Counted from the stretch's first letter, positions 1,391 to 50,237 are shown. The stretch is DNA of 64,000 bases from Waterburya sp. (GCA_965217895.1 CBDCJV010000002.1:1312001-1376000); one strand, 5' to 3'. Made by a program: numbers and translations. The notes: generated from the letters alone by a model not told the origin.

Positions 1391-1685
1391 AATTTTAGAG
1401 CAAGGATTATGTGTAATTATTAACCGTAGAAAAGTTCAAATTTTTGTTCAATATTGGCAAAGAATGTATTTAAATATAGATAGTCAAAATAGTTTTTATA
1501 AACTGCTAATTTAGCATAAAGTCTATAGACTCATGGTAAATATTAAGTTGAAAAATAGAAGCTACTTGTTGAATTATTACTGTTCATTTTTTTATTATCT
1601 GTGATCTGACGACAATTTTATTAGTGTTTAACCTCTAAATCAATAAGCAAATTAATGGTTTTATAAGATTATAGATATGTAAGTT

Positions 1686-2960
1686 TTATTTAGTTGCTTG
1701 CCGATATAAGTAAAAAACAATTAACCATAAACAAACCACTCTTAATGAGTCAGAAATTAAGGTAGCCCAAGCAGCACCCTGCCAAGAAAACTTGGGAATA
1801 AGCAATATATTTAAGCAGACATTAAGAATTGCAGCACCTACTTGGACTATGCTACGAGCTTTTTGATTTCCTGAACCCGTGAGAGAATCTGCTGCTAAAT
1901 ATTGAAAAGCGGCGATCGCTGGCAAAGGTGATAATAATATTAATGCCCCAATGGCATCTTTGTATTCTTCACCTAAAATCAAAGGGATATAAGGAGCAAT
2001 AATAAAATAGCCAATGACGCTGGCGATCGCATAAAATGCCATGAAAGGCAGCAGACGTTTGGCAAGGCTTAAGCTACCTTTAATTCCCGATGCGCCATGC
2101 TGAAAAAACCTAGTATAGGTAGCACCAGATAATGCCAAGAGAGGAACATTACCAACATCAATAAAGCGATAAGCTGAACCATATATTCCAGCAGCACCAA
2201 CACTAGAGAATTTACCCAGCATCGATTTATCCAAGCCTGCGTTGATATTATTGGCTGAAGCACTAATAGCAAAATACAGTCCCTGACCAATATTAGATTT
2301 AAGTTCCGCTAAAATAGGTCTTGGGAAACCTACCATTTTATGCACTATTGAGACAGTAATAATAGAAGTAACTACCGAACTGGTGAAGTATAAATAACTC
2401 CAGGTGGCAATACCTGGATTCTCAAAAAAAGCAGCCAAACACAGAGCAGCCAGGAGCTTGCCACAAGTATTCAATATTCCTAACTGTGCCGTCTTTTTGA
2501 CCATGTCATTAGCCATCAGAGCTTTAGACCCTAGATCGTACAAGGCTAAGCAAATTAGGTCTGATAGTAAGATTAGTAGGATTGTTCCCCATACAATATT
2601 TTTGGGAAATATCAAGGGAGACATCAAGAGCAAAGCTAAAGTTAAAAAAGAACCATTAGCAGTTAAAAGAACCAGGGCATTGCCCCAATAGGTACTAAAG
2701 CTGGCTTTATTAGTCGAAACATTTTTGACGAGGACGTGTTCACTACCTAAAGCTACAAAGGGAAAAATAATTGATGCGCAAGCAGTAATAACAATAAAAG
2801 AACCATAATTTTCTTTTCCCAATATACGGGCAACGATAACAAAGTATCCAGTTTGCATGACCACATTAAACAATCTGGATGACAGCATCCAGAAAGTATC
2901 CCGTGCCAGATTACTCTGAAATAGATTTGTTGCTTTCGCTCTTATTTCTACTATATTCAT
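1686..2960 (-). CDS. Polysaccharide flippase (Wzx/MATE-like)
   Basis: 424 aa multi-TM protein with ARILGKENYG and LLIPKFSWQGAAWATL; lies in the EPS locus. Confidence 0.88.
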   Translation of the reverse strand: MNIVEIRAKATNLFQSNLARDTFWMLSSRLFNVVMQTGYFVIVARILGKENYGSFIVITACASIIFPFVALGSEHVLVKNVSTNKASFSTYWGNALVLLTANGSFLTLALLLMSPLIFPKNIVWGTILLILLSDLICLALYDLGSKALMANDMVKKTAQLGILNTCGKLLAALCLAAFFENPGIATWSYLYFTSSVVTSIITVSIVHKMVGFPRPILAELKSNIGQGLYFAISASANNINAGLDKSMLGKFSSVGAAGIYGSAYRFIDVGNVPLLALSGATYTRFFQHGASGIKGSLSLAKRLLPFMAFYAIASVIGYFIIAPYIPLILGEEYKDAIGALILLSPLPAIAAFQYLAADSLTGSGNQKARSIVQVGAAILNVCLNILLIPKFSWQGAAWATLISDSLRVVCLWLIVFYLYRQATK

Positions 2961-2963
2961 GGT

Positions 2964-4640
2964 TTAGGTAGAATATGATACTTGTGGTATCAAAGCTTTT
3001 CCATCCAGATGTTCTGGTATTTCTGCATTCATCAAGCTCAAAATTGTTGGAGCTAAATCTACAGCTTCACCAGCAGATAAGTTAGATCCAGCAGGAATAT
3101 GATCTCCTTTAGCTAATAGAAAACCTTGACCTTTATGCCCACCTGCTCGACAGTGAGTCAGAGGCCCAACACGACCTAATCTTGAACTATCAACAACATC
3201 TGTGATTGGTTCTTGCCACAATACTACTAAGTCTGCATCAGGTAGCTTGGGATTATTATCCAAAGGAACAGTACGGGTTTTAACTACCTGCTTGACAATT
3301 TTTTTACCTGTTCTGCCATCTTGAAGGTCATAAAGAATTTCCGTCAATTCTGCACACAGAGCATCGTACTCTGAAGGCTCAACTACACCATCTCTATCTC
3401 TGCCTTTAAGATTGATACGGATATGTCCATTGGTAAAGGCAGGCAAAGCAAATGCTTTCATTTCTGGCCACAAAGGCGAGTACCACATACCAGGCATCCA
3501 GCCCATAGCTAATTCTTGTTCAATTGGTTCATCCAAGAGGCTATAAGGTGAGAGTAAACCATGTTTTTGACCTCTTAAAAACTTTTTGTGAGTCCAGGTG
3601 CGAAATAGCTTTTTAAGCGGATTAGGTTCATGAACCTGACTCCAGATTTCTCCAGCCCAAGAATTTCTAATCGGTTTTGTGACCATGGGCGAAGGAGTAG
3701 CACCAACTTTTCCTGGAGCGATCGCCGCTTTGCCATAATGAAAACGATATAATAGCTCTGGCAATACAGCCATACTTAATAAATCGGTAAAGTTAGCAGC
3801 CATACCGTGAGCCGAAAAACAAACTATATTCGCATCTTTAGGAGCTTGGGCTAAAATTTCGCCAATTGCGCGATCGACGTGCTGATAGGTTTTTAATACG
3901 GGATCGGCTTTAGTACCATTATTCGTAAGATATTTATAGGCAGGATGATCGGCTTGACTATGGTTATATAAATCGTGACCAATAGTATGAGTTTCACCAA
4001 ATACCATCAGGAATAAATCCCAATCATCTTGCTTGAGTAAATCACGAGCGATCGCCGAATGCCCATCAATACTCTTTCCTACAGCTTCTTGAATCCAGGT
4101 AACGTATTCTGGATTCCACCACAGCCCATTGTCATTATGTAAAACTGGGTTTTTACCATATTTTTTCGTAATAGCTGTAAAAAGTTCAGGAGGGTTGGAA
4201 GCACTGACGGTATAAGGATAATGTCCACCCCAACCCAAAATCTGCACCCCATTAACATCATTAGAAAGAGTAGTTACTGGAACATCTAAAACTGCAACTT
4301 TATAATCTTTTCCTAGGGCATAGAAAGGAGAATACTCTTGATAGTCATAACCGCTAGTGACTACATCGCAGATAATTTCATAGTTTTCTGGGTCGTAGCT
4401 AGCCGTATCCCAATAACCAAGCGTATCAACGCGACATCCAGTCGAAAAGGTTGCCCACAAAGGTTCAGTAGTTGAATATTCTGTAGGCACACCACAATAA
4501 TTCACCGTATTGTCTAAACGACCGTAAATTCCAGATTGACGAATTTTACTTAAATTTGGAAGATGTCCCGCAGCCATCCATTCTTCGATTAGCCTCGGTT
4601 CTGCTGCATCTAAGCCAATAACAATAGTTGATTTTTTCAT
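2964..4640 (-). CDS. Alkaline phosphatase superfamily protein (type I phosphodiesterase/nucleotide pyrophosphatase-like)
   Basis: N-terminal VIGLDAA and LPNL, SAHG motif, INLKGR, C-terminal GGH...DLAPTIL. Confidence 0.85.
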   Translation of the reverse strand: MKKSTIVIGLDAAEPRLIEEWMAAGHLPNLSKIRQSGIYGRLDNTVNYCGVPTEYSTTEPLWATFSTGCRVDTLGYWDTASYDPENYEIICDVVTSGYDYQEYSPFYALGKDYKVAVLDVPVTTLSNDVNGVQILGWGGHYPYTVSASNPPELFTAITKKYGKNPVLHNDNGLWWNPEYVTWIQEAVGKSIDGHSAIARDLLKQDDWDLFLMVFGETHTIGHDLYNHSQADHPAYKYLTNNGTKADPVLKTYQHVDRAIGEILAQAPKDANIVCFSAHGMAANFTDLLSMAVLPELLYRFHYGKAAIAPGKVGATPSPMVTKPIRNSWAGEIWSQVHEPNPLKKLFRTWTHKKFLRGQKHGLLSPYSLLDEPIEQELAMGWMPGMWYSPLWPEMKAFALPAFTNGHIRINLKGRDRDGVVEPSEYDALCAELTEILYDLQDGRTGKKIVKQVVKTRTVPLDNNPKLPDADLVVLWQEPITDVVDSSRLGRVGPLTHCRAGGHKGQGFLLAKGDHIPAGSNLSAGEAVDLAPTILSLMNAEIPEHLDGKALIPQVSYST

Positions 4641-4711
4641 TTTTTTAGAGAAAACAGTTATTCCAAGTTCTTAAATTACACTTACAAACTAAATGTTTGG
4701 ATTATGTATGT

Positions 4712-6907
4712 CTAGGCAGGGGCAGTTTTAGAGCTGCTACTCTCAGGAGAACTGGAAAAGTAGCTTTTACTGTATTTAGCGTGATAAGAATAGCGGTCAA
4801 ATTCGTTAGGCTTGACTCCATTAATAACCATTCCCAATACTTTTTGAGAAAGGTTGGCATTGGCTATAGTTTCTTGCGCTAATTCAGCACTCTCGTTTTC
4901 CACCACCCCTGGTCTACTTACAAAAACAATACCATCAGCAAGTTTGGTTAAGGTTAAAACATCAGCAGTCACAGCTAAAGGTGGAGCGTCAATAATAATT
5001 AACTCATATTCTTTTCTGGCTTTAGCTACTAGTTCGCTCATTTCGGCTGAATCTAATAAAGCAAGTGGGTTAGGAGCAATTATTCCAGCAGTTAGCAGAT
5101 CGAGTTGCTGCATTGGCTGAGAAACAACTTGAGCCAATGGTGTTTTATGAGTTACAACATCCTTGACCCCAGCTTTATTACTTACTTGCCACAGTTCATG
5201 TTGAGAACCCTTTCTTAAGTCAGCGTCAATTAATAAGACTTTGCGACCTAGCTGAGACATCGCCGCAGCTAGGTTGGCAGCAACGGTAGATTTACCCTCT
5301 CCTGGAACTGAACTAGTCATTAAAATAACTTTTGGTTGTCGCTTAACGGCTAAAAACTTAAGGTTAGTTTGAATCATGCGATAGATTTCGCTGGCAAAAG
5401 AATCAGGTTCTCTTTGGACAATAATTCCACCTTGATGTTCTTGTAAGGTATCCAAAGGAACAATACCTAATACTTGATAAGCAAACTTTTGTTTGATTTC
5501 AGGAATAGTTTTCAAGGTGCGATCCTGCATTTCTAGCAAAATTGCAGTTAGGTTGGCAAGAAATAATCCCATCAAAACACCCAAAGCCAGTAACATTACT
5601 CTGCCCGTGCTGCCTTCTTGAGGAATTTGACCCTGCTCTATAACCTCAGCATTACCCGTATCTTTATTGAGTAGTAACCCTAAATCTTGTTTACTATCTA
5701 ATAGTGTGTTGTAGGTAGAGCGAGAACTATCAACTTCACGAAGTAAGGATTGTTCCTGTTTTTCTAGTCTGGGGATTGCTTGAGAACGAGCCAAATAAAC
5801 TTTCTGAAATTGGTATAAAGATGATAATTGTGTTTCTAAGTTTAATTCGTCTATTTTGAGATTAATAAATCTTTCTAATTGGTTTTCTTTGACACTATTT
5901 CCACTCTGCAATAATCCAGCCGAAACTTTTCCTCCAACATATTGAGCAATAAGCTGCTGTAGTTGAGAATTTAAAGCTTGTTTCTTCTCATTTAAGCTAA
6001 CAACTGTTGGATGATTATCATTAAAACGCTGACGTTCTTGGGATAATTCTGTTTCTGTTGCTTGTTGTTGGGTAAGAATGCTTTGCACTTGAGGCGTGTT
6101 AGCTAATTGATTAGCACTTATCGCTTGATTCAGGTTTAGACCCAACTGATTTTGGAGACTTTGAGCTTGAGCTTTCTTACCTTGAAGGTCTGCACCTGTG
6201 GTAGAAATTTGGCGATTGAGATTACCTAGGTCAGCTACCAAAGTTTTCTTCTCTTCTTGTAAATCTACGATCTGATTTTTTTCGTAAAAATTCTGTAACC
6301 TGGATTCTAAACTTTGAAGTTTATTCTCAATTTGAGGAATTTCTTTAGTAACAAAGCTATTTGCACTAGCGGTTGCGGATTTATTACTACGAACTTGTTC
6401 TTTGATGTAGACATCCATTAAGGTATTTACTACCTTAGAAGCTATTACAGGATCTCGATCTTTGTATTGCAATTCAATAACATCAGTTCCGCCAACGATA
6501 TCTACTACCAGTTTTTTTTGTAGTGCCTCAACTTTTAAAGGTTTGCCTTCTTCATCCTCTAGCTTTAACTGATCTATGGTTTGCTGTAAAACTGGTTCTG
6601 AAGTTATACGCAGCTTTTCTGTACTCAGAGGAGTTTGATTGTCTAATAAAGACCGAAACTCATTAGTACTGCCTTTAATGTCACTTATTGAGCCTATAGA
6701 ATTTTTCTTGAATAGTATTTTGCCTTCGGATTTATATGTTTTTTCTAAAAAGCTGCTTAGGAAGGCAGTGGTACCAACAGTAAAGACAAAAACGGCTAAG
6801 GCAGGAAGCCAGCGGCGTTTAAGCTTGAGAAAATAGTTTCCTACATTAATATCAAGTTCTTCTCGCTGGCTAGGATAAGAACCATTATTTTTTTGCAAGT
6901 TAGTCAT
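4712..6907 (-). CDS. wzc: Polysaccharide co-polymerase / tyrosine autokinase (Wzc/GumC)
   Basis: TM-coiled coil-TM, then Walker A (SVPGEGKST), IDADLR, IIDAPP and a Tyr-rich tail. Confidence 0.92.
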   Translation of the reverse strand: MTNLQKNNGSYPSQREELDINVGNYFLKLKRRWLPALAVFVFTVGTTAFLSSFLEKTYKSEGKILFKKNSIGSISDIKGSTNEFRSLLDNQTPLSTEKLRITSEPVLQQTIDQLKLEDEEGKPLKVEALQKKLVVDIVGGTDVIELQYKDRDPVIASKVVNTLMDVYIKEQVRSNKSATASANSFVTKEIPQIENKLQSLESRLQNFYEKNQIVDLQEEKKTLVADLGNLNRQISTTGADLQGKKAQAQSLQNQLGLNLNQAISANQLANTPQVQSILTQQQATETELSQERQRFNDNHPTVVSLNEKKQALNSQLQQLIAQYVGGKVSAGLLQSGNSVKENQLERFINLKIDELNLETQLSSLYQFQKVYLARSQAIPRLEKQEQSLLREVDSSRSTYNTLLDSKQDLGLLLNKDTGNAEVIEQGQIPQEGSTGRVMLLALGVLMGLFLANLTAILLEMQDRTLKTIPEIKQKFAYQVLGIVPLDTLQEHQGGIIVQREPDSFASEIYRMIQTNLKFLAVKRQPKVILMTSSVPGEGKSTVAANLAAAMSQLGRKVLLIDADLRKGSQHELWQVSNKAGVKDVVTHKTPLAQVVSQPMQQLDLLTAGIIAPNPLALLDSAEMSELVAKARKEYELIIIDAPPLAVTADVLTLTKLADGIVFVSRPGVVENESAELAQETIANANLSQKVLGMVINGVKPNEFDRYSYHAKYSKSYFSSSPESSSSKTAPA

Positions 6908-15341: not shown

Positions 15342-16688
15342 TTAAATTGACTGAAAAAAGTAAACAATATAATCAAATATAGACATACCTAAAGGATGCT
15401 TATCGAAAAAGGTTATGCCTACAATATCCTGCATCTTTGCTTGAACCCCAATAAAGTTAAATGTATTGGATGCCGCCATGAAAATAGTTATGGCAGAAAC
15501 TACGGCAAAATTTTTGATTTTATTAGGCTCATTTAACTTTTGGTCATCCAAACCAACACAAAAAAATAAACCAAAAAAAGCTAAAAATAAATAAGCAATT
15601 CTTTGATTAAATCCTGTCACTAAAATAAACAAAATTTGTAGCAACGACACAAAATAAATAGAGATAAAAGACCATATTTTAAGAGTTATTTTTTTGTAGT
15701 TTCTCGATACTATAAAAACTCCTACAGACAAGATAGCAATAGCTAGAAAAATATTTAAGCTAAATAGTTGCGTATCTCGTTGATCGTTGTTTTCGACCCT
15801 ACCTCGTATCGATCTACTTATTTGAGCTTTAGGTACAAGCTCTAAAATACTATCTATAAATCGATATATACTCTTAGGATTGTTATATACTTGCAGCCCT
15901 AGATACAGCATGGCAATTACTGCTAATCCTAGCCCAATCAATAAGAAAATTTTATCTTCTTTTTTCCATTGAATTTTTTTAATAATTCGACCAATATTTC
16001 CTGCTGTTTGAACTCCTAAGCAAACTCCTATATAAATAACGCTACTAGTATGAGAAAAAATTGCTAACAAAGAGAAAATCCAAAATAAAATCCAGTTTGA
16101 TTCCATACTAGAGATCGCAGCTAGGACAAAAACCAGGGAAAAAAACTGGCGCATATAAAATACTTGTGAGTAATAAAAGTAACTAGAAAAGAGAATTATA
16201 AGTAAAGTAGGATAATACCTCGGTGATAAATTTTTACTAATATAAAAAACGATTACAGAATTATTAAATAAGGCAAAGGAAAATAAGCACCAAAACGTAG
16301 ATTCATTACTCAAATAGTGAATGACTGCAAAAAATAAAAATAAAACAACTTCAAAGCGATCTTTAGCAATATAGTTATCGAGAGGACCTTGACGATCTAA
16401 ATTATTATAAATATCTAAATAAACTTTAGTATCAGCAAAAGCATCAATGCTAGTAAGATAAAGTGAGATGGTTAAAACAATTAAAATTAAAACAAAATTA
16501 TTTAAAGATAAAAGCTTGCTGTAATTTTTGGATGGTCTTAAAAGATCTAGTTGAATAGCTAAGAGCAGGGGAATAATTCCCAAAATCGGAAATGATACCC
16601 AAACAGCAAACCCAAAAAATAATACTGGCAATCTTAATTCAGAAATATTCTGAATTTTTTTTATTCTTTCAAAGGTTTGATCGAGCAT
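15342..16688 (-). CDS. EpsG/Wzy-like polysaccharide polymerase
   Basis: Multi-TM, AT-rich; DTKVY, MRQ and FSHTSS motifs; downstream of a GT2 gene. Confidence 0.75.
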   Translation of the reverse strand: MLDQTFERIKKIQNISELRLPVLFFGFAVWVSFPILGIIPLLLAIQLDLLRPSKNYSKLLSLNNFVLILIVLTISLYLTSIDAFADTKVYLDIYNNLDRQGPLDNYIAKDRFEVVLFLFFAVIHYLSNESTFWCLFSFALFNNSVIVFYISKNLSPRYYPTLLIILFSSYFYYSQVFYMRQFFSLVFVLAAISSMESNWILFWIFSLLAIFSHTSSVIYIGVCLGVQTAGNIGRIIKKIQWKKEDKIFLLIGLGLAVIAMLYLGLQVYNNPKSIYRFIDSILELVPKAQISRSIRGRVENNDQRDTQLFSLNIFLAIAILSVGVFIVSRNYKKITLKIWSFISIYFVSLLQILFILVTGFNQRIAYLFLAFFGLFFCVGLDDQKLNEPNKIKNFAVVSAITIFMAASNTFNFIGVQAKMQDIVGITFFDKHPLGMSIFDYIVYFFQSI

Positions 16689-16720
16689 GATATCTTTTGG
16701 AGAAGTAATAAGTAATTCGT

Positions 16721-16747
16721 TAGGGGCGAACGGCCGTTCGCCCGTAC
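16721..16747. repeat. REP-like palindrome (GTAG/TAGGGGCG family)
   Basis: TAGGGGCGAACGGCCGTTCGCCCGTAC, flanked by AGTAATAAGT on both sides; related copy at 33438. Confidence 0.8.
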
Positions 16748-16757
16748 AGTAATAAGT

Positions 16758-17684
16758 TTAATTTGGTTTGATTATTTTTTTTATTTGTTGTTGATAGTTA
16801 CGAGGAGTCGACAACTTAAGCAGTAAATATAAGCTATAAAATGGTGAAATAATACCCTTTCGCCAAGCTTTAAAAATTAGGTTAGTAGCGACAAATTTAT
16901 TAATTGGCTCTTTAATCATTTTTGGCACAATTTCTTTGAGTAAAAAGCCCTGATAAGCATCCTCAGAAATGTGCTGACGATATTGCTGAATCCAATCAAG
17001 GGAAGCTTGATAATTAACTTGGCAAGAAATGCGATCGCTTCTTGACTCATTATGCCAGGTTGCTAAAACTTGGGGGACAAAAATAAATTTTGCTCCTTGT
17101 TTTTCTAATCTAATTACAAAGTCTAAATCTTGATGTTTAACTAATCCAGTCTGAAATAAAGTTTGGCCAGCTAAAGTACGAGAAATTATTAAAGTACTAG
17201 TTAACATTTCTCCTCCAGATAGCCAAAAATATTCAGGTATTGTTTCTTGTTCTTGTTTACCCTTAGCAGGCAATATTGATCGCTGATAAAATATCTGAGA
17301 GCTTTTTTGAAACTGGGCATAACAAACCAAATTATCCTGGCATTTCTGTTGAGAAATAATAGCTAATTGATGTCGCAATTTATCTGGTAGCCATACATCA
17401 TCCGAGTCAAGAAAGGCAATATATTTTCCTTGAGCATTTCTAATACCTGTATTTCTGGCTTCTGAACCACCTAGATTTGTTTGATGACAGATATAGATAA
17501 CTCTGGTATCGTTTATTTGTTGAATAATTTGAGCTGTATTATCAATAGAAGCATCGTCAACTATAATAATCTCTGTCTTTTGATACGACTGCTTGATAGC
17601 TGAACTAACCGATCTGAGAATTACGTTAGCACGGTTGTAGGTTGGTATAATGACGCTAACTAAATGCTCTTCAATTTTTCTCAT
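16758..17684 (-). CDS. Glycosyltransferase family 2
   Basis: VSVIIPTYNR, IIVDDAS, ARNTG and FLDSDD motifs. Confidence 0.95.
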   Translation of the reverse strand: MRKIEEHLVSVIIPTYNRANVILRSVSSAIKQSYQKTEIIIVDDASIDNTAQIIQQINDTRVIYICHQTNLGGSEARNTGIRNAQGKYIAFLDSDDVWLPDKLRHQLAIISQQKCQDNLVCYAQFQKSSQIFYQRSILPAKGKQEQETIPEYFWLSGGEMLTSTLIISRTLAGQTLFQTGLVKHQDLDFVIRLEKQGAKFIFVPQVLATWHNESRSDRISCQVNYQASLDWIQQYRQHISEDAYQGFLLKEIVPKMIKEPINKFVATNLIFKAWRKGIISPFYSLYLLLKLSTPRNYQQQIKKIIKPN

Positions 17685-17719: not shown

Positions 17720-18061
17720 CTATTGAGGGTGAAATTTAGGGTAGAGCATCGCTTTAACAGGAGATTTCTCGATTAGGTGCTTTTTGATGACGGTAGACAC
17801 TTCATCAGGATGAACTTGAGAATACCAGGTTTGGTCTGATTCTACAAGAACCATAGAACCATTACCACATTGCCCTAAACAGCCGACAGAAACTAGCTCA
17901 AAGTCTGCTGGTAAGTTTTGTTTAAACTTAGCAAAGACTCGCTCAGAATTATATTTACGGCAGCTACGCCCCAAACAAACTAAAATCTTCTGCGACTTAG
18001 AGTCAGGAGACTGGTTAGGAAATTGCATACTGTCTGTTGATGGAGATAAATCTGATTCCAT
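17720..18061 (-). CDS. Thioredoxin-like [2Fe-2S] ferredoxin
   Basis: VCLGRSC (Cx4C), GCLGQC (Cx3C) and WYSQV. Confidence 0.88.
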   Translation of the reverse strand: MESDLSPSTDSMQFPNQSPDSKSQKILVCLGRSCRKYNSERVFAKFKQNLPADFELVSVGCLGQCGNGSMVLVESDQTWYSQVHPDEVSTVIKKHLIEKSPVKAMLYPKFHPQ

Positions 18062-18203
18062 AGCTACGGAGTATTTTTAGATGGGAAGATTTTTGCCTAA
18101 AGTTGCGCATAGCCTCACATTTTAATTTTTGCTATTTTATTAGTAAATATTCATAAGAGTTTAAATTTTTGCTGCTAAGTATTAACTTTTAGCATTTCTC
18201 GAA

Positions 18204-18234
18204 ATATACCCCTAGAGGGGATGTTAGATATAAT
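18204..18234 (+). promoter_or_regulatory. Putative CsoR/RcnR/InrS-family operator adjacent to a -10 box
   Basis: ATATACCCCTAGAGGGGATGT (C-tract/G-tract with AT flanks) followed by TATAAT at 18229-18234. Confidence 0.6.
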
Positions 18235-18335
18235 TATTGATAGAGTCTGAATTTAAAGTTATTCCCGCAAAATACAGCAAAAACCTGCTTTAAATTCAAT
18301 TTATAACTTAACCTAAATTATTGAGGAAACTGCCA

Positions 18336-19484
18336 GTGGTTACAATTTCACATCAATCTACCGTTGATGAACATCACCATCATCATGAATCAGAACCTAA
18401 TCAAAGTAACCGTGTAGCCGTATTATTAATGGGTTACGGGGAAGTTGAAAGCTATAAAGACTTTGCCAACTACAATGAACAGGCTCTTAATCTTTTGACA
18501 GCTAAATTTGCTCCTGTACCTACCTGGATCTATCCTGCGATCGCTAAATTACTAGCGATGTTTGACCTTCACGAATGGAGTCATCAACACAATAATTTTA
18601 TTTCTCCCCACAACGCTATCTTTGAAGAGCAAAGAGCAGGAATTGAAAAAGAATTAAAAGCAACCTGGGGAGAAAAGGTTAAAGTTTTCAAGGCATTTAA
18701 CTTTTGCGCTCCCCATTTACCCGAACAAATATTAGCTGAGATAAAAGAGCAAGGATTCGACAAAATCCTTATTTATCCTCTGCTAGTAGTCGATTCTATC
18801 TTTACTAGCGGTATTGCGGTAGAGCAAGTTAACAAAGCTTTAGCCAATCAAGCCGAGGGAGAATCCCATTGGTTAAAAAATTCTCGCTACATTCCTTCTT
18901 TCTTCAATAAGCCAGACTATGTTAATCTGCTAGCGCAAATGGTAGAAGAAAAAATTGAGGCGGAATTGGCACAGGGACATTTAGCTTCTCAAATTGGCAT
19001 CATTTTGATGAATCATGGTTGTCCCCATAAAGCCAAAGGATTTACGTCGGGAATCTACGAAAGCCAAGCTTTATATGAGTTAGTTCGAGAAAAGCTAATT
19101 GATAAATATCCTCTGATTTCTGTTGGCTGGCTCAACCACGACACCCCATTAATTGAATGGACACAGCCTAATGTTAAATTGGCTGCACAGAATCTACTTG
19201 AATTAGGGGCAACTTCAATAGTTATGATGCCCATTGGCTTTGCCACCGAAAATCATGAAACATTGCTAGACGTAGATCATATTATTCATAATCTACAGCA
19301 CAAGCATTCAGATGTTACCTTTATTCGGATGCCTTGCGTTAACAGTCGCCCTGAATTTATGCAGATGGCAGCAGAGTGGGCAAATCCACAAATTGAGGCA
19401 CTATTAGAAGAATCTGGGATGACGGTTAACCCTCAGTTAGCTAAAACCCAGGCTGCTCACGCTCATTCCCATCATCATCATTAA
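18336..19484 (+). CDS. Ferrochelatase-family (class II chelatase) paralogue with His-rich termini
   Basis: VAVLLMGYG, ILIYPLL, MNHGCP and GFATENHETLLDVD; no C-terminal CAB domain; GTG at 18336 preceded by GAGGA (ORF track starts at 18321). Confidence 0.82.
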   Translation: MVTISHQSTVDEHHHHHESEPNQSNRVAVLLMGYGEVESYKDFANYNEQALNLLTAKFAPVPTWIYPAIAKLLAMFDLHEWSHQHNNFISPHNAIFEEQRAGIEKELKATWGEKVKVFKAFNFCAPHLPEQILAEIKEQGFDKILIYPLLVVDSIFTSGIAVEQVNKALANQAEGESHWLKNSRYIPSFFNKPDYVNLLAQMVEEKIEAELAQGHLASQIGIILMNHGCPHKAKGFTSGIYESQALYELVREKLIDKYPLISVGWLNHDTPLIEWTQPNVKLAAQNLLELGATSIVMMPIGFATENHETLLDVDHIIHNLQHKHSDVTFIRMPCVNSRPEFMQMAAEWANPQIEALLEESGMTVNPQLAKTQAAHAHSHHHH

Positions 19485-19508
19485 ATCGCTTCTTATTTTA
19501 ATTTAAGC

Positions 19509-19565
19509 GTAGGGTGGGCATTACGAAATCTGTAAGGCGTGATAATCGATTGGTTAATGCCCACC
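19509..19565. repeat. REP-like element (GTAGGGTGGGCA...TGCCCACC)
   Basis: Inverted arms around a variable spacer; related copies at 44915 and 46013. Confidence 0.8.
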
Positions 19566-19620
19566 ATTATTAAATGTTGGCAATGATTATTTGATGACGA
19601 AGTGGGCAACATAGCTCCTT

Positions 19621-20154
19621 TTAAGCAGTCCAGAAAGGAATTGAAAACAGACCGAACATAATATTAATGGGAAAGGGAACTACAAACACAGTAATCCCAG
19701 TCCAAAAAACCAAAAAGCTGTTCCAAGCGATCGCAAAAGTAACTAGCCAAGTTAACCCTAGTGTAAAATCCTTCGGGGGAATAAAAACTGCAATTGTAGA
19801 CGAGGTTTTTTGCAGCTTAATTTTACTATGGGCTGGCTGTTCAATTATCTCAGCGTCTTTTTTTAAAATAATAGGCTGTTTGAAAGCCTGTAATGCTTCT
19901 GTTGCCGAACAAAAACGGCGATCGCAACTTGGCTTAATCAGCTTACATAACCAATTTTTTAAGACAGGGCTAAGACCAACTTGTTTCTCAAATAATATAC
20001 GTCCATCTTTACTCGGCAAGTCCGTAGGATGCCTGCCTGTAGCCAGATAAATCAAAGTTGCACCCAAACTATAAAGATCCGATGCGGGTGTAGTTTTACC
20101 GCCAAATTGTTCTGGAGGCATATAGCCATAAGTTCCGACTACGGTTATTGTTCC
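19621..20154 (-). pseudogene. Ser/Thr protein kinase remnant (subdomain VIII onward; N-terminus missing)
   Basis: In-frame GTITVVGTYGYMPPEQFGG...SDLYSLGATL directly after a TGA at 20155-20157; no Gly-loop, HRD or DFG upstream. Confidence 0.85.
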
Positions 20155-20206
20155 TCATCTATATTGCCCATTCAAGATCTAAAAACAACCGATTAATTAA
20201 GCTTAT

Positions 20207-22840
20207 TTACTTTGCTTCAACTTGTTGTAAGCAATCTCGCAGAAGGTTTACAAACACCTGTGCATCAGTTTCTTTGATGAGAAAATTGTGATGTTCTCCA
20301 GGTATTTGATGAATATCAAGACCGCCCAATGCCAGATCGCGCCAGCCTCCATAGGGATCTTGATAGCTTTTGGCTAGCTTTACCTTGGTTTGAAACAGAG
20401 TTACCCTGCCAGAATAAGCAGTTGGTTGATAGAGTGCTGCTGCTTGTCGGTTGATGTTCTCAATTTGGCGACGCAGCAATTGTGAAGAGGGGAGTAGTTG
20501 ACTAACAATTTTGGTATATGCCTGAGCAAGAGGATCGGGAATGGTTTTTTTGATATACCAATTTAATCTTCTCGATACGTAATTAAATTTTTCTTGTTGA
20601 TCTAATTGTTCAATATTTTGTAAATGGGCAGCTAACCAGGTAGCAAGATTGTTTTTTAACTCGACAACACTATAACCATAACAATCAAATAGTCCCAAGA
20701 AAGCTACTTGTTCTCCTAGCTGGTTTAACTGTTGCGCCATTTCCCAAGCTAAAATCCCCCCCAAAGAATGTCCCCCCAGATAATAAGGACCGTTAGGTTG
20801 AACGGTGCGTATTTCCTTAATGTAATGACTAGCCATATCTTCAATACAGATATAGGGTTCGTGTCTTCCATTCAAACCCTGGGACTGTAGCCCGTAGACT
20901 GGGCGATCGCCTTGAAGCTGAAATGCTAGATATTGATAGGAAAAGGTGTGTCCACCCGCATTATGAATGCAAAATAAGGGCGGTTTGAAGCCTAAAGGTT
21001 GGATCGGCACCAGAGACGATGGGGAATTAACAGGCTCAACCTGCTCTAGCATCTCGGCTAATTGAACAATGGTTGGTGCTTGAAAAATAGTTGCCAGAGG
21101 TAAGTTTTTACCAAGCTGCTTTTCTATCTGAGTAAATAAACGGGCGGCCAAAATGGAAGTACCCCCTAATTCAAAATAATTGTCTTTGACTCCAATTTGC
21201 TTGATGCCTAAAACTTTTTGCCAAATTTGACTTAATTTTTTTTCCCGCTGATTTCTGGGTGCAACATAGTCTGTAGCTAGGGACTGTCGCTTGAGAGATG
21301 GTGCAGGTAAAGCAGCCAGATCTAGTTTGCCATTGGCAGTTAATGGCAGTTGCTGGATCTGGACAAAGTATTGGGGTATAGCATACTTAGGTAAATGTCC
21401 CTTGAGAAAAGAACGCAACTTGGCGATCGCAATTTGCTGTTTAAATACTAGATAAGCTACCAGAATTTGCCGTTGGGCTATATCTTCTCTGAGAACTACC
21501 ACCACTTCGCTAACAGCCTGATGTTTGCCTAAAACTGCCTCAATTCCTCCTAATTCCACCCGAAAACCGCGAATTTTGACTTGGCGATCGCCTCTACCCA
21601 AAAATTCTAGCTGTCCATCAGGGAGATAGCGAGCGCGATCGCCTGTCCGATAAAGTCTTGCCTTTGGTTGAGAGCTAAAAGGATCGGCGATAAATTTTTG
21701 AGCATTTAACTCTGGTTTATTCAAATATCCCCGCGCGATCGCTTTTCCGCCTATATACATTTCTCCTGGAGTACCAAAAGAAACTGGCTGCCGTGACTCA
21801 TCTAATAAATGAATGGTGACATGGGGAAGAGGTGAACCGATTATACTTCGTTGAGCATGGTCGATATCTTGGGCTTTGAGCCGCTTATAGGTCACTTCTC
21901 CCGCTGTTTCGCACATAGCATACATATTTACTAGCTGAGGCTGATCATCTCCATGATTAGCTACCCAAGACTTGAGCAAATAAGGCTCTAATGCTTCACC
22001 GCTAAAAACTATAAACCGTAGGGATAATGATTTATCAATAGCGCAATCAGCACGCACAAATAAGTTAAAAGCAGAGGGAGTCTGACTAAGAACAGTTACC
22101 TTTTCTCGATGCACCAAATCATAAAATTCTTCAGCAGCAGCGCAGATATATTGCGGCACAATGATTAACTTTCCTCCATGGAGCAAAGCACCCCAAATTT
22201 CCCAAACTGAAAAACCAAAGGAATAGGAGTGAAACATCGTCCAAATATCTTGGTTATTGAACGGCAGCTTGGTTGCTACTGCCTCAAAGAGACTAGCTAC
22301 ATTGCCGTGGGTAGCCATCACCCCTTTGGATTTACCCGTAGAGCCTGAAGTATAAATTACAAAGAGTAAATTATCTGGAGAAATATTTAGGGTTGGAGCT
22401 TGTTGAGTTTGTTGGGCAATCTTGTCAGCATCACGATCTAACAAAACGACCATAGCCCGATGATTAAAATTATGCTCTAAATCAGACTCAGAGATGATTA
22501 TGGGGGCTTGACTATCCTCTAATATATAAGCCAGACGTTCTGAAGGATAATTTGGGTCTAATGGTAAGTAAGCTCCTCCTGCTTTGAGAATAGCTAGAAT
22601 GCTAACAATAGTATCAATCGACCTCTCAACGCACAAGCCGACAATTGTTTCGGCAACAACTCCTAGCTGTAAAAGATGATTGGCAAGCTGATTAGCTCGG
22701 CAATCTAATTGTCTGTAGCTTAAAATTGCTTCACCGTAGCTAACCGCAGGAGCATCAGGATTTTGGGTTACTTGCTGAGAAAATAGTTGATGTAGAGAGG
22801 TATTTGTTTTCCGTTGATTATCGCTAGCAGGATAATTCAT
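20207..22840 (-). CDS. Stand-alone NRPS-like enzyme, A-T-TE
   Basis: A motifs LSYRQL, YTSGSTGKSKG, YRTGD, QVKIRGFRVELGGIE and NGKLD; T motif FELGGTS; TE motif GHSLG with C-terminal GEH; no C domain. Confidence 0.95.
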   Translation of the reverse strand: MNYPASDNQRKTNTSLHQLFSQQVTQNPDAPAVSYGEAILSYRQLDCRANQLANHLLQLGVVAETIVGLCVERSIDTIVSILAILKAGGAYLPLDPNYPSERLAYILEDSQAPIIISESDLEHNFNHRAMVVLLDRDADKIAQQTQQAPTLNISPDNLLFVIYTSGSTGKSKGVMATHGNVASLFEAVATKLPFNNQDIWTMFHSYSFGFSVWEIWGALLHGGKLIIVPQYICAAAEEFYDLVHREKVTVLSQTPSAFNLFVRADCAIDKSLSLRFIVFSGEALEPYLLKSWVANHGDDQPQLVNMYAMCETAGEVTYKRLKAQDIDHAQRSIIGSPLPHVTIHLLDESRQPVSFGTPGEMYIGGKAIARGYLNKPELNAQKFIADPFSSQPKARLYRTGDRARYLPDGQLEFLGRGDRQVKIRGFRVELGGIEAVLGKHQAVSEVVVVLREDIAQRQILVAYLVFKQQIAIAKLRSFLKGHLPKYAIPQYFVQIQQLPLTANGKLDLAALPAPSLKRQSLATDYVAPRNQREKKLSQIWQKVLGIKQIGVKDNYFELGGTSILAARLFTQIEKQLGKNLPLATIFQAPTIVQLAEMLEQVEPVNSPSSLVPIQPLGFKPPLFCIHNAGGHTFSYQYLAFQLQGDRPVYGLQSQGLNGRHEPYICIEDMASHYIKEIRTVQPNGPYYLGGHSLGGILAWEMAQQLNQLGEQVAFLGLFDCYGYSVVELKNNLATWLAAHLQNIEQLDQQEKFNYVSRRLNWYIKKTIPDPLAQAYTKIVSQLLPSSQLLRRQIENINRQAAALYQPTAYSGRVTLFQTKVKLAKSYQDPYGGWRDLALGGLDIHQIPGEHHNFLIKETDAQVFVNLLRDCLQQVEAK

Positions 22841-22845
22841 AGACT

Positions 22846-23694
22846 TTAGTTATGGCTACTGGCACGTTTAGCAACTAAAACAATACCATCATCATTAATC
22901 GCCTGACTGTTCAGAAAATGCTGACTTAACTTATTTTCTAGCAACTGCTGAATCTCATTGGCGCGGGGATGCTGATGGTAACACAGTCTTTGTAAAAGAG
23001 ACTTAGCTGCTTGCGTTCTAGACTCTACCGTTGGTTTATTAAATTCTAAAGGAATAGAAACTGAGTGCATTTCAATGTCTGCAAAACCATTGAGTTCTAA
23101 AATACTGGCTGCTAAAGCGAGTAAATAACCATGATGGGTAGGCTGCTTGCCAGTTAGTAAAGCGCAATCGTTAAGTAAAGAGGCAACTTGATTCCAAGGT
23201 GCTGCTTGGACAAGGATAATTTGCGAGTCCCGATTCTCTCGGCAAACTCTCGCCATTTCTGCAATACACAGAGCAGGATCTTCAGAATATTGTAATACCC
23301 AGGTAGCAATAACAGCATCAAATGAATGGCGATCAAAAGGTAAATCTTCTCCTCTTCCTAAAATAATCTCAATCGGACTATTACTTTCGATTAGGGCAGC
23401 ATTATCGGCATCTGGTTCAACTACGGTACATTTACCATAACGTTGGGCGATCGCCGTTGTCAATAACCCAGTGCCACCGCCAATGTCAAGAATATCATCA
23501 CATCCTGACAATAGCTGTAAAAGCAATTTTATTTCAGCTTCAGGTTTAAGTCGCTGGGCAAATTCTACCCAACCTTCATGAAACAAGGACTTTGCTCCTC
23601 CATATGTATTAGGAAAAGCGATTTGTGGGTTACAAAAAGGATGCTGTCGCCAGCGATTAGAAATTTGCGGATGGGTATTCGTAGCTATATTCAT
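22846..23694 (-). CDS. Class I SAM-dependent methyltransferase
   Basis: ILDIGGGTG, EDLPF..HSFDAV and EMARV motifs; stops 5 bp before the NRPS start. Confidence 0.9.
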   Translation of the reverse strand: MNIATNTHPQISNRWRQHPFCNPQIAFPNTYGGAKSLFHEGWVEFAQRLKPEAEIKLLLQLLSGCDDILDIGGGTGLLTTAIAQRYGKCTVVEPDADNAALIESNSPIEIILGRGEDLPFDRHSFDAVIATWVLQYSEDPALCIAEMARVCRENRDSQIILVQAAPWNQVASLLNDCALLTGKQPTHHGYLLALAASILELNGFADIEMHSVSIPLEFNKPTVESRTQAAKSLLQRLCYHQHPRANEIQQLLENKLSQHFLNSQAINDDGIVLVAKRASSHN

Positions 23695-24424
23695 TATCTA
23701 TTTTTATGAAGGCGATTGCTTTTTTATAAAGTTTTAACTTTAAAATAAACCTGCTTGGTTATATTATTGAGGTTAAATATTCAAGTTTAATACATAAATA
23801 AAACCAATGTATATTCAACATTTAAGTTAATTAAAGTTATTTTCCCAAGATGTTATTGAAACACAGTTAAATAATCATTATTTATTTAATATTATTTTCA
23901 GATATTTTAATAAACATAGTGAACATTATTTCAGGTTTAAAGTCAATAGTGTTTAACAGTATTCAGCTAAATTCTTAACTTAAATTAAATATTACTCAAA
24001 TTATTATCAATATAGATCAATATATACAGATCTATAGTCCAAATAGTCAATAATAGGTCTATATCTAGACTTGTACAGTACAAAGAAGCTAAAAAGTATT
24101 TACCTTATTTTTAACTATTGTGCTGGTATATTGCTCGCAAAACGTAGCATTTGATAATTTCTAGATCGACGTTGCAAAATTAACTAATGCTATAGAAAAT
24201 CCGTTTAATTGTTATAAAAACATTAAATTTGTTTATTTATTTTAATGGTTTTCTTAGGCAATGTTTATTACTGGTGTTGATAGTTGGATACTTATCAAAA
24301 GCTTATAAAAGAGCAAATGTTCTGTCATCTTGCCGTAGTAATCGCTTATTTTAAGCGAAATTATGAAAAATAGTAAAAATATCAATCTCATCAAATTTAA
24401 TAAACACCTGCTTCTTGAGGAATA

Positions 24425-24892
24425 ATGATAGAAAATTCAACACTTACTCTTTCAAAAAATACCAACGAGTATCATTCTGCCGATCTAGCTAAGAAAGACA
24501 TTTATGGTCAAGCAACTGAAACTCGCAACCACTGGAAGTCATTAATTTTTGAATATTTAATTTCAGCACAATTCTATCGTCAACACTCAAATCCGCCTCT
24601 TTGGACAGATTACCACTATCATAATTTTCAGGTAACTCTAACCTTGACTTCTCCCTGCAACAAAGCAGATTTATATGGTGTAGATATGATTGAAGCCCAA
24701 AAAATTTTAGAGGCAGTATGTGAGCAAATTCCCAGTAAGGTAAACGAATTACCTGAATGTATCAACGGCACAACAGAACAGCTTTGTTTGTATTTTGCTT
24801 CTCAGGTTAGGTTCAAAGATCCCCAAGTACAGATTAAATCTGTGAGCGTATCCGAGACTCCTGAAAGAGTGACCAAAATAAGTTTCGCTTGA
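24425..24892 (+). CDS. 6-pyruvoyl-tetrahydropterin synthase / QueD-like T-fold protein
   Basis: H-x9-HxH (QHSNPPLWTDYHYHNFQV), GVD, VNEL, TTEQL and terminal VSVSETP; GAGGA RBS upstream. Confidence 0.72.
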   Translation: MIENSTLTLSKNTNEYHSADLAKKDIYGQATETRNHWKSLIFEYLISAQFYRQHSNPPLWTDYHYHNFQVTLTLTSPCNKADLYGVDMIEAQKILEAVCEQIPSKVNELPECINGTTEQLCLYFASQVRFKDPQVQIKSVSVSETPERVTKISFA

Positions 24893-24997
24893 AGAAATCG
24901 GCTTGATTGGTTTTATTCATTAAAAAAAGCGATGCAGCACGTTGTGAGGGTCACATACAGCTAAAGCCTTTGTCCCATTGTAGCAACTGTATTTGTG

Positions 24998-25040
24998 AGC
25001 GATCGCCTGCTATAATTACTTTGGTAGCGATCGCTTTTTT
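24998..25040 (+). terminator. HIP1-based hairpin plus T tract between convergent genes
   Basis: AGCGATCGC...GCGATCGCT followed by TTTTT. Confidence 0.45.
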
Positions 25041-25069
25041 GAAATTAAACTCGATCTTGTTTGCCCAGG

Positions 25070-26413
25070 CTATGCCGATTCAGGCTTGCGATAAGAAGTT
25101 GGATGGATAATCAACTCAGCAGTAGAGCGTTTTTCTACCATTTCTTCGGTAATAACGCATTTACTCAAATCTTTACGAGAGGGAATTTCGTACATCATAT
25201 CTAGCATCAATTCTTCGACGATACCCCGTAAAGCTCTCGCACCCGTTTTACGACGATAAGCCTCTTTGGCTAAGGCTTTGATTGCACCTTCGGTAAACTC
25301 AAGCTCAATGTTATCCATTCCCAGCAGCTTTTTATACTGTTTGACAATAGCATTTTTAGGTTTAGTCAATATCTGGACTAACGTAGCTTCGTCTAAAGGT
25401 TCTAAGGCTGCGGTAACGGGAATTCTACCCACAAACTCAGGAATCATGCCGAACTTAACTAGGTCGTCTAACTCCAACTTCTGTAATATGTCGGCGGTAC
25501 GCTTTTCCTTGGAAGGAGGATTTTCTCCCTTCTGAATAAAGCCCATTGACTTTTTACCCAGACGACGCTCTACTACCTTATCTAAGCCAACAAATGCACC
25601 ACCACAAATAAACAAAATATTCTTGGTATCAATTTGAATACAGTCTTGATAAGGATGCTTACGACCACCTTGGGGTGGTACATTAGCTACTGTCCCTTCT
25701 AACATTTTAAGTAATGCTTGCTGTACCCCTTCACCTGAAACATCGCGGGTAATTGAAGCATTCTCGCTTTTACGAGCTATTTTATCAATTTCGTCAATAT
25801 AGATAATGCCTCGCTGCGCCTCTTCTACATCTAAGTCAGCTACCTGTAACAAACGAAGTAGAATATTTTCCACATCTTCTCCCACATATCCCGCTTCGGT
25901 AAGGGTAGTAGCATCGGCAACGGCAAAAGGCACTTGTAAAACTTTAGCTAGAGTTTGTGCCAAAAGGGTCTTACCACAGCCTGTAGGACCAATTAAGAGA
26001 ACATTAGACTTTTGTAGCTCTACGGGGTCATCAGCATCCTTGGCTTTATTAGCCAAGCTGAGACGTTTGTAATGATTATACACCCCAACAGAAAGAACTT
26101 TTTTTGCTTCTTCCTGACCAATTACGTGTTCGTCTAAACAGCTTTTTATCTCAATTGGCTTGGGAATGTCTCCAAAAGAAATGCCACCCGATTTTGACTT
26201 TTTCTTTTTGGCTGGTTTTGCTTCAGGATTTCCCGATACCGCAGCCGAAGAGACTACAGCCCCTTCTTCAATCAACTCCTCATCTAAAATTTCGTTACAC
26301 AGTTCAACACATTCATCACAAATATAAACTCCAGGTCCTGCAATTAACTTTCTGACTTGTTCTTGTGATTTTCCGCAAAATGAACATTTTAGATGGGAGT
26401 CGTATTTAGACAT
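25070..26413 (-). CDS. clpX: ATP-dependent Clp protease ATP-binding subunit
   Basis: CSFCGK zinc finger, [15 protein letters not shown] and GARALR. Confidence 0.98.
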
Positions 26414-49007: not shown

Positions 49008-50237
49008 TTAAACTTTTGAATTCTTTGAAGAGATTGCAGTTCCAACAGTGCTGTCCACTACTCGACAAATTTGTTTTCTATATATCCACAATAGAGCAGC
49101 TAGTACTATTAGAGAAACTCCTACAAATCCGTAAGTTGCTGTCATACCAAAGTTTTGTCTAATTGGTTGGGAAACGATGGGAGAAAGAAACTGACCTAAA
49201 AACATAAATGTAGTAAGACCCCCTAGCGCCCTTCCTCGCAAAGTGTCTGGAACTTCATTAACAGTCCAAACATTCAGGTTAGGCATCATTAAACCCAATC
49301 CGATCCCAGTCGGGATAAGTACTAGTAGTATAAGCCAATAGCCGCTAACCAACCCGATACCAAAATAGCCCAAACCTATTAGTCCAAAAGCGATCGCCAG
49401 AATTTTAATAAAACTAAAGCGCTTTTTGAATCTACCATAGTTCATAGAAGCAAAGGCGCTAAAAAGGATAGAAAAAGCGATCGCCAGTCCAGTCTGAGTA
49501 GCTCCTGCTCCTGAAAGCTATTCGAGGTAAAAGGGCAATTGTACGGGAATTAAGTAAAAGACAATTTGCTGTAGCATCACGCAAGTGTATATTAGCACTA
49601 GCAGCTTTATAGGAAGCTTTGCTGCGTGTAGTGTTGTACCTGTGTCTGCAATGTTAATTTTAGGTCGTAATGGCTCGTATATGGTAAACACAATACCAGG
49701 TATTAATAGCCATGAAAATAGATAAATTAAAAAGGGAAACCGCCAGTTTAAATCGGCAATAAATCCACCCACTGATAGAAATAGAACACCGCCAAAGCCC
49801 ATAAATGCAGCCTGCAAACCCATGAAGTTTGCTCTTGCGTCGTCTTGGTAATAATCTGCAATCAGAGTTGTAGCACTAACCATCACCCCTGCGACTGCCA
49901 ACCCTAACAGCGCCCGTCCGACGAGAATAGCAAAAATCGAATTCAGTACAAAACCCGAACCGCCAGCGAAGCCATACAGAATTGCAGAACCCAACAATAG
50001 GGGCTTGCGACCAATTTTATCAACTAGTTGACCAGCAATAGGCGAACCAAATGCAATAAATAGGGCAGGCACTGTCAGTACTAGCCGTACCCAAAACTCG
50101 GAGTTGGTAACGTCTGAAAAGTTCGCCTGCATAGCAGGTAGAGAAGGCGCAATCGTAGCTCCTGACATTACCGTAAGCGTGCTGGCTAGCAAGATTGTAA
50201 TTTTTGTCAGCCTTAAATTCGGATTTTTAGCGCTCAT
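49008..50237 (-). pseudogene. MFS transporter interrupted by a single in-frame TAG
   Basis: The two ORF-track pieces share one frame; TAG at 49518-49520 is followed by LSGAGATQTGLAIAFSILFSAFASMNYG; motif A DKIGRK. Confidence 0.88.

Follow-up and report, generated by a model that had tools for sequence, protein, structure and literature searches.

Do three rare genes that share one small block of a cyanobacterial genome form a single biosynthetic pathway, or do they belong to separate systems? The question is raised by a 64,000-nucleotide stretch from Waterburya sp. (GCA_965217895.1 CBDCJV010000002.1:1312001-1376000; the whole stretch analysed, hereafter the window). Here a gene for an enzyme of the NRPS-like kind (NRPS, nonribosomal peptide synthetase) with adenylation (A), thiolation (T) and thioesterase (TE) domains, a class-I S-adenosylmethionine (SAM)-dependent methyltransferase gene and a divergent gene of the PTPS/QueD fold (T-fold) stand together (Table 1). 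A first-pass annotation had joined all three into one candidate pathway, in which a GTP-derived heterocyclic acid, or another non-standard acid, would be methylated, adenylated and coupled by the TE. We tentatively prefer to read the island as two units, a methyltransferase/NRPS-like operon and a QueD-like gene predicted to serve queuosine synthesis, a reading to which we give somewhat less than an even chance. The A-T-TE enzyme would activate a small carboxylic acid that has no free alpha-amino group, its TE would release the loaded acid by transfer to an acceptor or by self-condensation, and the neighbouring methyltransferase would methylate the substrate or the product. The T-fold protein would supply the pterin step of queuosine synthesis and not the substrate of the synthetase.

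The gene arrangement behind the earlier proposal stood up when examined by open reading frames (ORFs) and Pfam domains: the methyltransferase gene lies 5 bp from a single-module A-T-TE gene, the T-fold gene (PF01242) diverges from the pair across a 730-bp AT-rich spacer (GC 0.278, compared with 0.38-0.46 in the flanks), and the block sits between a broken kinase gene and the end of clpX. All three ORFs are intact and stop-free (877, 282 and 155 aa). By its domains, the 877-aa protein is an NRPS-like single-module A-T-TE enzyme: Pfam matched AMP-binding (E 1.4e-86), AMP-binding_C, PP-binding and Thioesterase (E 2.4e-32) and found no condensation (C) domain (PF00668) in it, and the A domain scored 428.7 bits against a TIGR01733 cut-off of 317.4. 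The carrier Ser562 (GGTS) and the TE residues Ser692 (GHSLG), Asp719 and His850 are present, in columns conserved among relatives.

The enzyme departs from its relatives in the A-domain pocket. We aligned the window protein (P0001) with its 119 best database relatives (n=120) and read the pocket positions via the A4 FDxS and A5 NxYGPTE anchors, the numbering not being taken from an alignment to 1AMU, which was among the synthetase's matches; these anchors, and the PheA numbering with its assignment of Asp235, are ones we take to hold here. Asp occupies the mapped position 235 in 117 of the 120 sequences, and Gly is found only in P0001 and in P0007, an 892-aa A-T-TE protein with 49 % identity. 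The commonest pocket code, DFWNIGMVHK (83 of the 120), is presumably the threonine code, whereas P0001 reads GFWSVSMGEK with an A5 motif of NMYAMCE, and P0007 reads GFWSVCTGQK with NTYALCE. All short (<1000 aa) database relatives except P0007 have a D-type code. The P0001 A domain stems from the Thr-type clade and keeps the bulky residues Phe236, Trp239 and Met322; position 331 is Glu in P0001 and Gln in P0007. Over a conserved core of 154 positions, each at least 90 % conserved in the other sequences, P0001 departs at 20 and P0007 at 18, while six ordinary relatives keep 144-150 (4-10 departures). The two proteins share 9-10 departing positions, with an identical residue at five of them (159, 160, 209, 308 and 310), which argues for a derived, selected subclass and not for decay.

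Keto-acid-activating A domains also replace Asp235, by a hydrophobic residue where the island synthetase has Gly, according to the available excerpts of PMC10949194 and PMC13643306. The Gly at position 235, together with the changes common to the single distant relative, points to a substrate without a free alpha-amino group, and the A domain probably loads a non-alpha-amino acid, with 2-oxo, 2-hydroxy and N-alkylated acids as possible examples. With Phe236, Trp239 and Met322 kept, the pocket would seem to suit a small substrate and to be less well suited to a bicyclic pterin. Thus, of the two substrates proposed earlier, the non-standard acid fares reasonably given the missing Asp235, and the GTP-derived bicyclic acid fares poorly given Phe236 and Met322.

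The congeners offer a hint as to how the TE would act. Their A-T-TE genes (in G019 and G028; 47-48 % identical to the synthetase) encode stand-alone enzymes of 904-933 aa and lie within glycan clusters, and the TE of MysE, the NRPS-like enzyme of cyanobacterial mycosporine-like amino acid synthesis, is thought to hand its loaded acid to an outside acceptor (PMC10666671, in the portion accessible). By analogy with both, transfer to an acceptor is the most likely role of the island TE, with self-condensation as the alternative. In the two congener clusters (L092, G019:C2:5254000-5272000, and L093, G028:C2:1157000-1174000), the A-T-TE gene stands amid genes for glycosyltransferases, a pyruvyl transferase, an acyltransferase_3 protein, a DegT aminotransferase and an ABC transporter, an arrangement that suggests glycan acylation or aminoacylation.

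Two known systems resemble the synthetase. MysE (Ava_3855) is likewise an A-T-TE enzyme without a C domain. However, MysE loads Ser, Gly or Pro and is encoded beside mysA, mysB and mysC, whereas the island synthetase lacks Asp235, and no mysA (dehydroquinate synthase (DHQS)-like), mysB (O-methyltransferase) or mysC (ATP-grasp) gene is adjacent to the synthetase or present in the window. We rejected an identification as MysE on the missing mys context and the missing Asp235. The other system is the quinone and furanone synthetases, which are A-T-TE enzymes with a condensing TE. In these, as in keto-acid A domains, Asp235 is replaced, as it is here; the island A domain is of Thr-type descent and only 49-51 % identical to anything known, and no aryl-pyruvate logic can be deduced for it. 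Elsewhere in the genome, 1.2 Mb away, a DHQS-like/ATP-grasp cluster (L098, G000:C2:121669-126641) may be of mycosporine type; its four genes in a row encode a DHQS-like protein of 414 aa (below the AroB cut-off), a 278-aa protein, an ATP-grasp protein (PRK06849, 515 bits) and a 352-aa protein. A third DHQS-family gene lies on a small contig of the same genome (C1:13673-14824).

The methyltransferase gene stops 5 bp before the synthetase ATG, a spacing that ties its product to the synthetase, and the two genes are likely co-transcribed as an operon. The spacer upstream presumably carries the promoters of both this operon and the T-fold gene; promoter-like sites in it were not above shuffled expectation (21 vs 16.6 +/- 4.1), nor was the outcome of a terminator scan, and an Rfam scan of 19400-25200 returned no match at E<=1. 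In Pfam the protein matched Methyltransf_11 (E 2e-16) and also Methyltransf_25, and no NCBIfam model reached its cut-off. It belongs to a small subfamily with conserved motifs of its own, with 13 relatives at E<=1e-5, the best of them 70, 65, 60 and 52 % identical. Distant relatives from metagenomes (32 loci, 31-50 % identity; GC 0.68-0.76 in the 14 measured) held neither a synthetase nor a T-fold gene at any of the 32 loci, where ORF calling was poor. Pfam on 30 ORFs neighbouring these loci gave nothing coherent, and ESM Atlas returned only generic class-I methyltransferase clusters.

We then turn to the divergent gene, whose product is a PTPS superfamily member (PF01242, 33.4 bits against a gathering cut-off of 22.4). 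In the AlphaFold2 model, with a predicted local distance difference test (pLDDT) score of 80.8, residues 1-35 are predicted to be disordered and residues 36-155 form the T-fold. Foldseek matched the model to E. coli QueD, a Pseudomonas PTPS homologue and PH0634 at template modelling (TM) scores of 0.80-0.85 over about 120 columns with 21-23 % identity (TM 0.80-0.81 against 4NTK and 2OBA). In the HMMER alignment to 4NTM, the HxH pair (in a stretch that reads W60-T-D-Y-H64-Y-H66) and the TTE/TSE stretches align, and the pterin-anchoring Glu is kept. The T-fold, the HxH pair and the Glu are therefore common to the protein and QueD/PTPS-I, whereas the Cys motif and the Asp-His pair are not.

Its family has a signature of its own, RxHxNPP..W...HxH and GTTExxC. 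Near-invariant among 34 members are R52, H54, N56, P58, H64, H66, F68, P103, N107, G115-T-T-E118 and C121, with H64 and H66 in 32 and E118 in all 34, and the island protein keeps every one of the family's invariant residues. The family comprises 11 clusters in a library of 5.8 billion proteins, and a search of 1.84 billion gave 43 representatives at E<=0.001, of which 36 reach E<=1e-10. Of the 43 listed, 42 are proteins of 68-226 aa without an added domain; the one longer match, P0185 (899 aa, E 5.4e-06), has four matched stretches. In the tree, the family lies far from the ordinary tandem PTPS protein of the genus. Judged by these comparisons, it is a small, separate and new class of PTPS-fold proteins.

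A role in queuosine synthesis is suggested by what else the genome encodes. Its set for the route through 7-cyano-7-deazaguanine (preQ0) to 7-aminomethyl-7-deazaguanine (preQ1) is otherwise complete (Table 1), and the island T-fold gene is its sole PTPS-family gene, so that an ordinary job is available to it. The QueE-like gene is kept in 38 of the 39 genus genomes, and the copy in this genome shares 96-97 % identity with its counterparts in three congeners. By comparison, a 292-aa tandem PTPS protein is present in 30 of 36 sampled congeners, the six without it being 71-88 % complete. That protein scores above the NCBIfam QueD cut-off as a whole and has Cx5HGH spacing in both halves, which leaves its exact role uncertain. 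The only high-quality genus genome without the tandem PTPS is the only one with the island T-fold gene, and G019 has the opposite pattern, with the tandem PTPS kept and the island lost. From this distribution, we infer that the T-fold protein would have QueD-like activity and can serve the pterin step on the way to preQ0. Also missing from the present genome are 8.5 kb or more of sequence that G019 (L090, C2:1060000-1071000) and G020 (L091, C1:3322500-3333500) have in common. Besides several unnamed genes, this segment contains the tandem PTPS gene and a gene for alanine racemase (alr, 434 bits), whose product gave no tblastn match in the genome at E<=1e-5.

Gene neighbourhoods of the family point the same way. 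A scan of all species genomes found ten T-fold loci besides that in the window (Microseira, Microcoleaceae, Coleofasciculaceae, Lyngbya and others). At five of them, the T-fold gene lies 9 bp after, or overlaps, a gene for a radical-SAM protein of 204-214 aa, which is the only QueE-like match in each of the five genomes. Its best family is QueE, at 127 bits and below the cut-off of 200, as is the QueE-like protein of the present genome at 135 bits. No synthetase or methyltransferase gene lies within 10 kb of any of the ten, so the coupling of the T-fold gene to the pair, as proposed earlier, was not borne out by co-occurrence. In L026 and L028-L030 (Microseira, Phormidiaceae and kin), a zinc-ribbon protein (175-196 aa) is encoded upstream of the T-fold gene, and in L026-L030 so are two family-less proteins, of 303 aa (266 aa in L027) and 130-172 aa; the genomes concerned are closely related, which may by itself account for their common gene order.

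A number of observations weigh against a queuosine role for the T-fold gene and an operon of separate function beside it. The main argument is the absent catalytic Cys. The PTPS classes are defined by Cx3HGH (QueD, PTPS-I), Cx4HGH (QueD2), Cx5HGH (PTPS-II) and ExxHGH (PTPS-III), and the Cys is required in QueD2, as given in the sections available of PMC5041015 and PMC9894224 (the latter for QueD2). None of the four motifs is present in the T-fold protein. The QueD position, 60, is Trp in 24 of the 34 family members, with Cys not among the five commonest residues; the QueD2 position, -5 from H64, is Leu59; the PTPS-II position, -6, is Pro58, found in 32 of 34; and the PTPS-III position, -3, is Thr61, which is variable, with Glu in 2 of 34. 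The Asp of the E. coli QueD Asp-His pair is Pro, and the protein reaches only 18.2 bits with NCBIfam QueD TIGR03367 (cut-off 89.25) and stays below every other NCBIfam cut-off. In the genomic comparison, the queE-adjacent loci fall in only two lineages on the tree, the other five loci (the second large clade) are not beside queE, and a queE query found nothing in those five genomes. Furthermore, the tandem PTPS protein is also present in all ten of the other T-fold genomes, and the family is thus not simply its replacement. On the synthetase side, the substrate call for the P0001 A domain is a prediction from sequence alone, with PheA numbering on presumed anchors. As the QueD/PTPS catalytic motifs are absent, the chemistry assumed by the first-pass annotation is not assured, and having failed the motif tests, the T-fold gene was rejected as a plain queD.

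The distribution of the block as a whole bears on the same choice. The T-fold protein query matched only its own genome, both in a set of 61 relatives and in the full 39 genomes of the genus; the methyltransferase query did so at E<=1e-25 across 401 genomes from the order, the weaker matches (23 among the 61 relatives) covering only the SAM-binding part at 24-39 % identity. For the synthetase, the best match in the relatives is 48 % identical, and in the 5.8-billion-protein library the best full-length relative has 49 % identity, with no match above 51 %. A tblastn search of a plasmid collection with the methyltransferase and T-fold proteins gave no match. Congener G019 is about 92 % identical over clpX-clpP-tig but, by blastn and alignment, lacks window positions ~19927-24847. 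Its junction keeps 87 bp of the kinase fragment (19840-19926) and a terminal ~45-60 bp of the T-fold gene (match from 24848; gene end 24892), and these remnants indicate that the block was present in the common ancestor and was removed from G019 by one deletion. The exopolysaccharide (EPS), ferredoxin and chelatase genes to the left of the island sit elsewhere in G019, so their adjacency to it is specific to the window's genome. The block is a rare accessory island of ~4.9 kb, bounded by the broken kinase gene and clpX, and the island-bearing stretch was found only in the sequencing runs (two) of one sample, which may be its source; no RNA run was listed among those that contain it. As for origin, the first-pass annotation had pointed to sites of the highly iterated palindrome HIP1 (GCGATCGC) within two of the genes, and these were found: the synthetase gene has five and the methyltransferase gene one, and the window holds 70 compared with 0.37 expected. 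The window is cyanobacterial by this measure, and the internal sites would fit long residence of the two genes in cyanobacteria.

That three very rare genes stand together and were lost together in G019 suits one unit as well as hitch-hiking, and is a further point against two units. So is the finding that, for the 65 % homologues of the T-fold protein (P0123) and of the methyltransferase (P0134), the longest contig listed has 29,541 bases in both cases and comes from one source; given the same figure, the two are probably on one contig in a second organism. Both observations would favour a single pathway, in which the T-fold enzyme makes a GTP-derived pterin or deazapurine that is methylated and then used by the A-T-TE enzyme. 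That enzyme might load the carboxylate of 6-carboxytetrahydropterin or 7-carboxy-7-deazaguanine, or it might load a small acid with which the TE acylates the heterocycle, as in the pepteridines and with the outside acceptor of MysE. Such a pathway would accommodate the divergent genes around a common 730-bp region, the absence of all three from congeners, their joint removal from G019 by a single deletion, a pocket without Asp235 and with Glu (Gln in P0007) at 331, and a T-fold family that keeps the pterin-anchoring Glu of QueD and is queE-linked elsewhere. There is also chemical precedent from actinomycetes, whose known pathways include a PF08241 methyltransferase that acts on preQ0 and the formation of an amide from 7-carboxy-7-deazaguanine (10.64898/2026.04.15.718813, in the part available). 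We nevertheless consider one three-gene pathway unlikely, as partners were found at 0/10 T-fold loci and 0/32 distant methyltransferase loci, no synthetase among the best 120 matches lists a 29,541-base contig, and Phe236 and Met322 would leave little room for a bicyclic acid. Neither a GTP cyclohydrolase nor a reductase nor queE is present in the island, none of the 43 T-fold representatives was found as a fusion (the 899-aa P0185 being unexamined), and an ordinary queuosine role is suggested for the T-fold gene. The only described island found to join NRPS parts with a PTPS homologue is the pepteridine island of Photorhabdus luminescens, whose product is an acylated pterin; it combines GTP cyclohydrolase I with a pteridine reductase, a pyrophosphokinase and a pyruvate-dehydrogenase E2 fused to T-C and is without an A or TE domain, and methyltransferase has 0 mentions in the text available to us (PMC5384830). 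In contrast, neither GTP cyclohydrolase I nor a pteridine reductase nor a T-C fusion occurs in the island or the window. In a survey of 7-deazapurine clusters, 'NRPS' and 'cyanobacteria' have 0 occurrences in the text as available (10.64898/2026.04.15.718813). No described cluster with the island's gene set was found in the literature, in line with the earlier remark that the combination was unrecognised. We know of no described carrier-protein-dependent, TE-released pterin or deazapurine metabolite, and of none from a cyanobacterium.

The synthetase might instead acylate a glycan or cell-surface polymer that the methyltransferase tailors, with the T-fold gene unrelated. The congener A-T-TE genes inside glycan clusters (G019 and G028, 47-48 %) and the EPS genes of the window (2-6907 and 15342-17684) fit this, but the left-flank EPS genes owe their position to an adjacency specific to this genome, the island has no glycosyltransferase, and the D-type code of the short relatives other than P0007 implies a different substrate class, so that we hold glycan decoration to be quite improbable. 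It is also conceivable that the island is a relic with intact frames but disused genes, whose odd residues come from relaxed selection. Its place between a broken kinase gene and a rearranged flank, its loss from one congener, its recovery from one sample only and three changes at near-invariant positions in P0001 alone (P171S, E432G and F555Y) would agree with disuse. The three stop-free frames, the kept catalytic residues of the synthetase, the key deviations common to P0007 at 49 % identity and the T-fold protein's full set of family-invariant residues all speak against it, and we regard decay as very improbable. An operon for a small, non-alpha-amino acid beside a gene for the pterin step of queuosine synthesis is, in our tentative view, the better account.

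Two of the island's proteins each define a small subclass, undescribed so far, within a well-studied family. One is the Gly235 A-domain subclass with an altered A5, of which only two members were found among 5.8 billion proteins; the other is the PTPS-fold family, with its RxHxNPP...HxH signature and without any known catalytic Cys motif. A rare methyltransferase subfamily is also part of the finding. The boldest proposal is that a new QueD-fold enzyme, an A-T-TE enzyme that acylates or loads its product and a methyltransferase together give a pterin or 7-deazapurine metabolite, with the T-fold family as an unrecognised seventh PTPS class able to replace QueD; we think it improbable as a whole. 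Should the QueD step prove to be the work of the T-fold protein, the queuosine gap in this genome would be filled, and COG0720, a classic example of a family with wrongly annotated paralogs, would gain a class. Should the protein supply the synthetase, the island would offer a compact path to a metabolite of a new kind, derived from a pterin or a deazapurine.

Table 1. Features of the island and its left edge (window positions), and genes of the queuosine route in the same genome
Feature	Position	Strand	Details
A-T-TE synthetase gene	20207-22840	(-)	877 aa ORF; Pfam and NCBIfam domain matches
Synthetase A domain	aa 20-505, nt 21326-22783	(-)	Pfam/NCBIfam
Synthetase T domain	aa 535-598, nt 21047-21238	(-)	Pfam/NCBIfam
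Synthetase TE domain	aa 620-854, nt 20279-20983	(-)	Pfam/NCBIfam
Class-I SAM-dependent methyltransferase gene	22846-23694	(-)	282 aa; Methyltransf_11 and Methyltransf_25
Divergent intergenic spacer, AT-rich	23695-24424	.	730 bp, GC 0.278
Non-canonical PTPS/QueD-fold (T-fold) gene	24425-24892	(+)	155 aa; PTPS PF01242
Truncated Ser/Thr kinase gene, left island edge	19621-20121	(-)	NCBIfam MAD6 kinase, 34.6 bits
Island as unit (segment deleted in congener G019)	19927-24847	.	blastn and alignment of G019 locus L068
FolE, own genome	G000:C2:5047403		273 bits
QueE-like, own genome			intact
QueC, own genome			249 bits
QueF, own genome			present
Tgt, own genome			present
PF01242 (PTPS family), own genome			island T-fold gene only

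At the left edge of the island, the kinase fragment is the C-terminal half of the protein from subdomain VIII, with a hydrophobic tail; it starts at the GT..YMPPE stretch, with stops upstream, covers positions 373-470 of the 612 in the NCBIfam MAD6 profile and has no Pfam match. On the right, the 3′ end of clpX lies at 25070 and is followed by clpP and tig. A repeat search found only short HIP1-centred repeats and no mobile-element ends. The first-pass annotation had described the window as free of C-domain, que, mys and transporter genes. None of the former three was seen in the window, but transporters are present, none of them near the block: a Wzx-type flippase (1689-2960), two major facilitator superfamily (MFS) pieces (49011-50237) and a small multidrug resistance (SMR) protein (55270-55611). 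The MFS pieces are adjacent ORFs of 145 and 239 aa on the (-) strand that cover different parts of MFS_1, and they may be a single transporter gene broken by a frameshift or stop.

In the gap between clpX and the T-fold gene, a 64-bp stretch (24934-24997) is missing in G019 and has GCGAT/HIP1-like sequence on both borders, which makes it a short indel located at a HIP1 site. To the left of the kinase fragment, 17720-19484 holds two neighbouring genes, one for a thioredoxin-like 2Fe-2S ferredoxin and one for a ferrochelatase-family protein of 387 aa (PF00762, 138.8 bits). The latter is below the hemH equivalog cut-off, has a weak CbiX match and may be a non-HemH chelatase.

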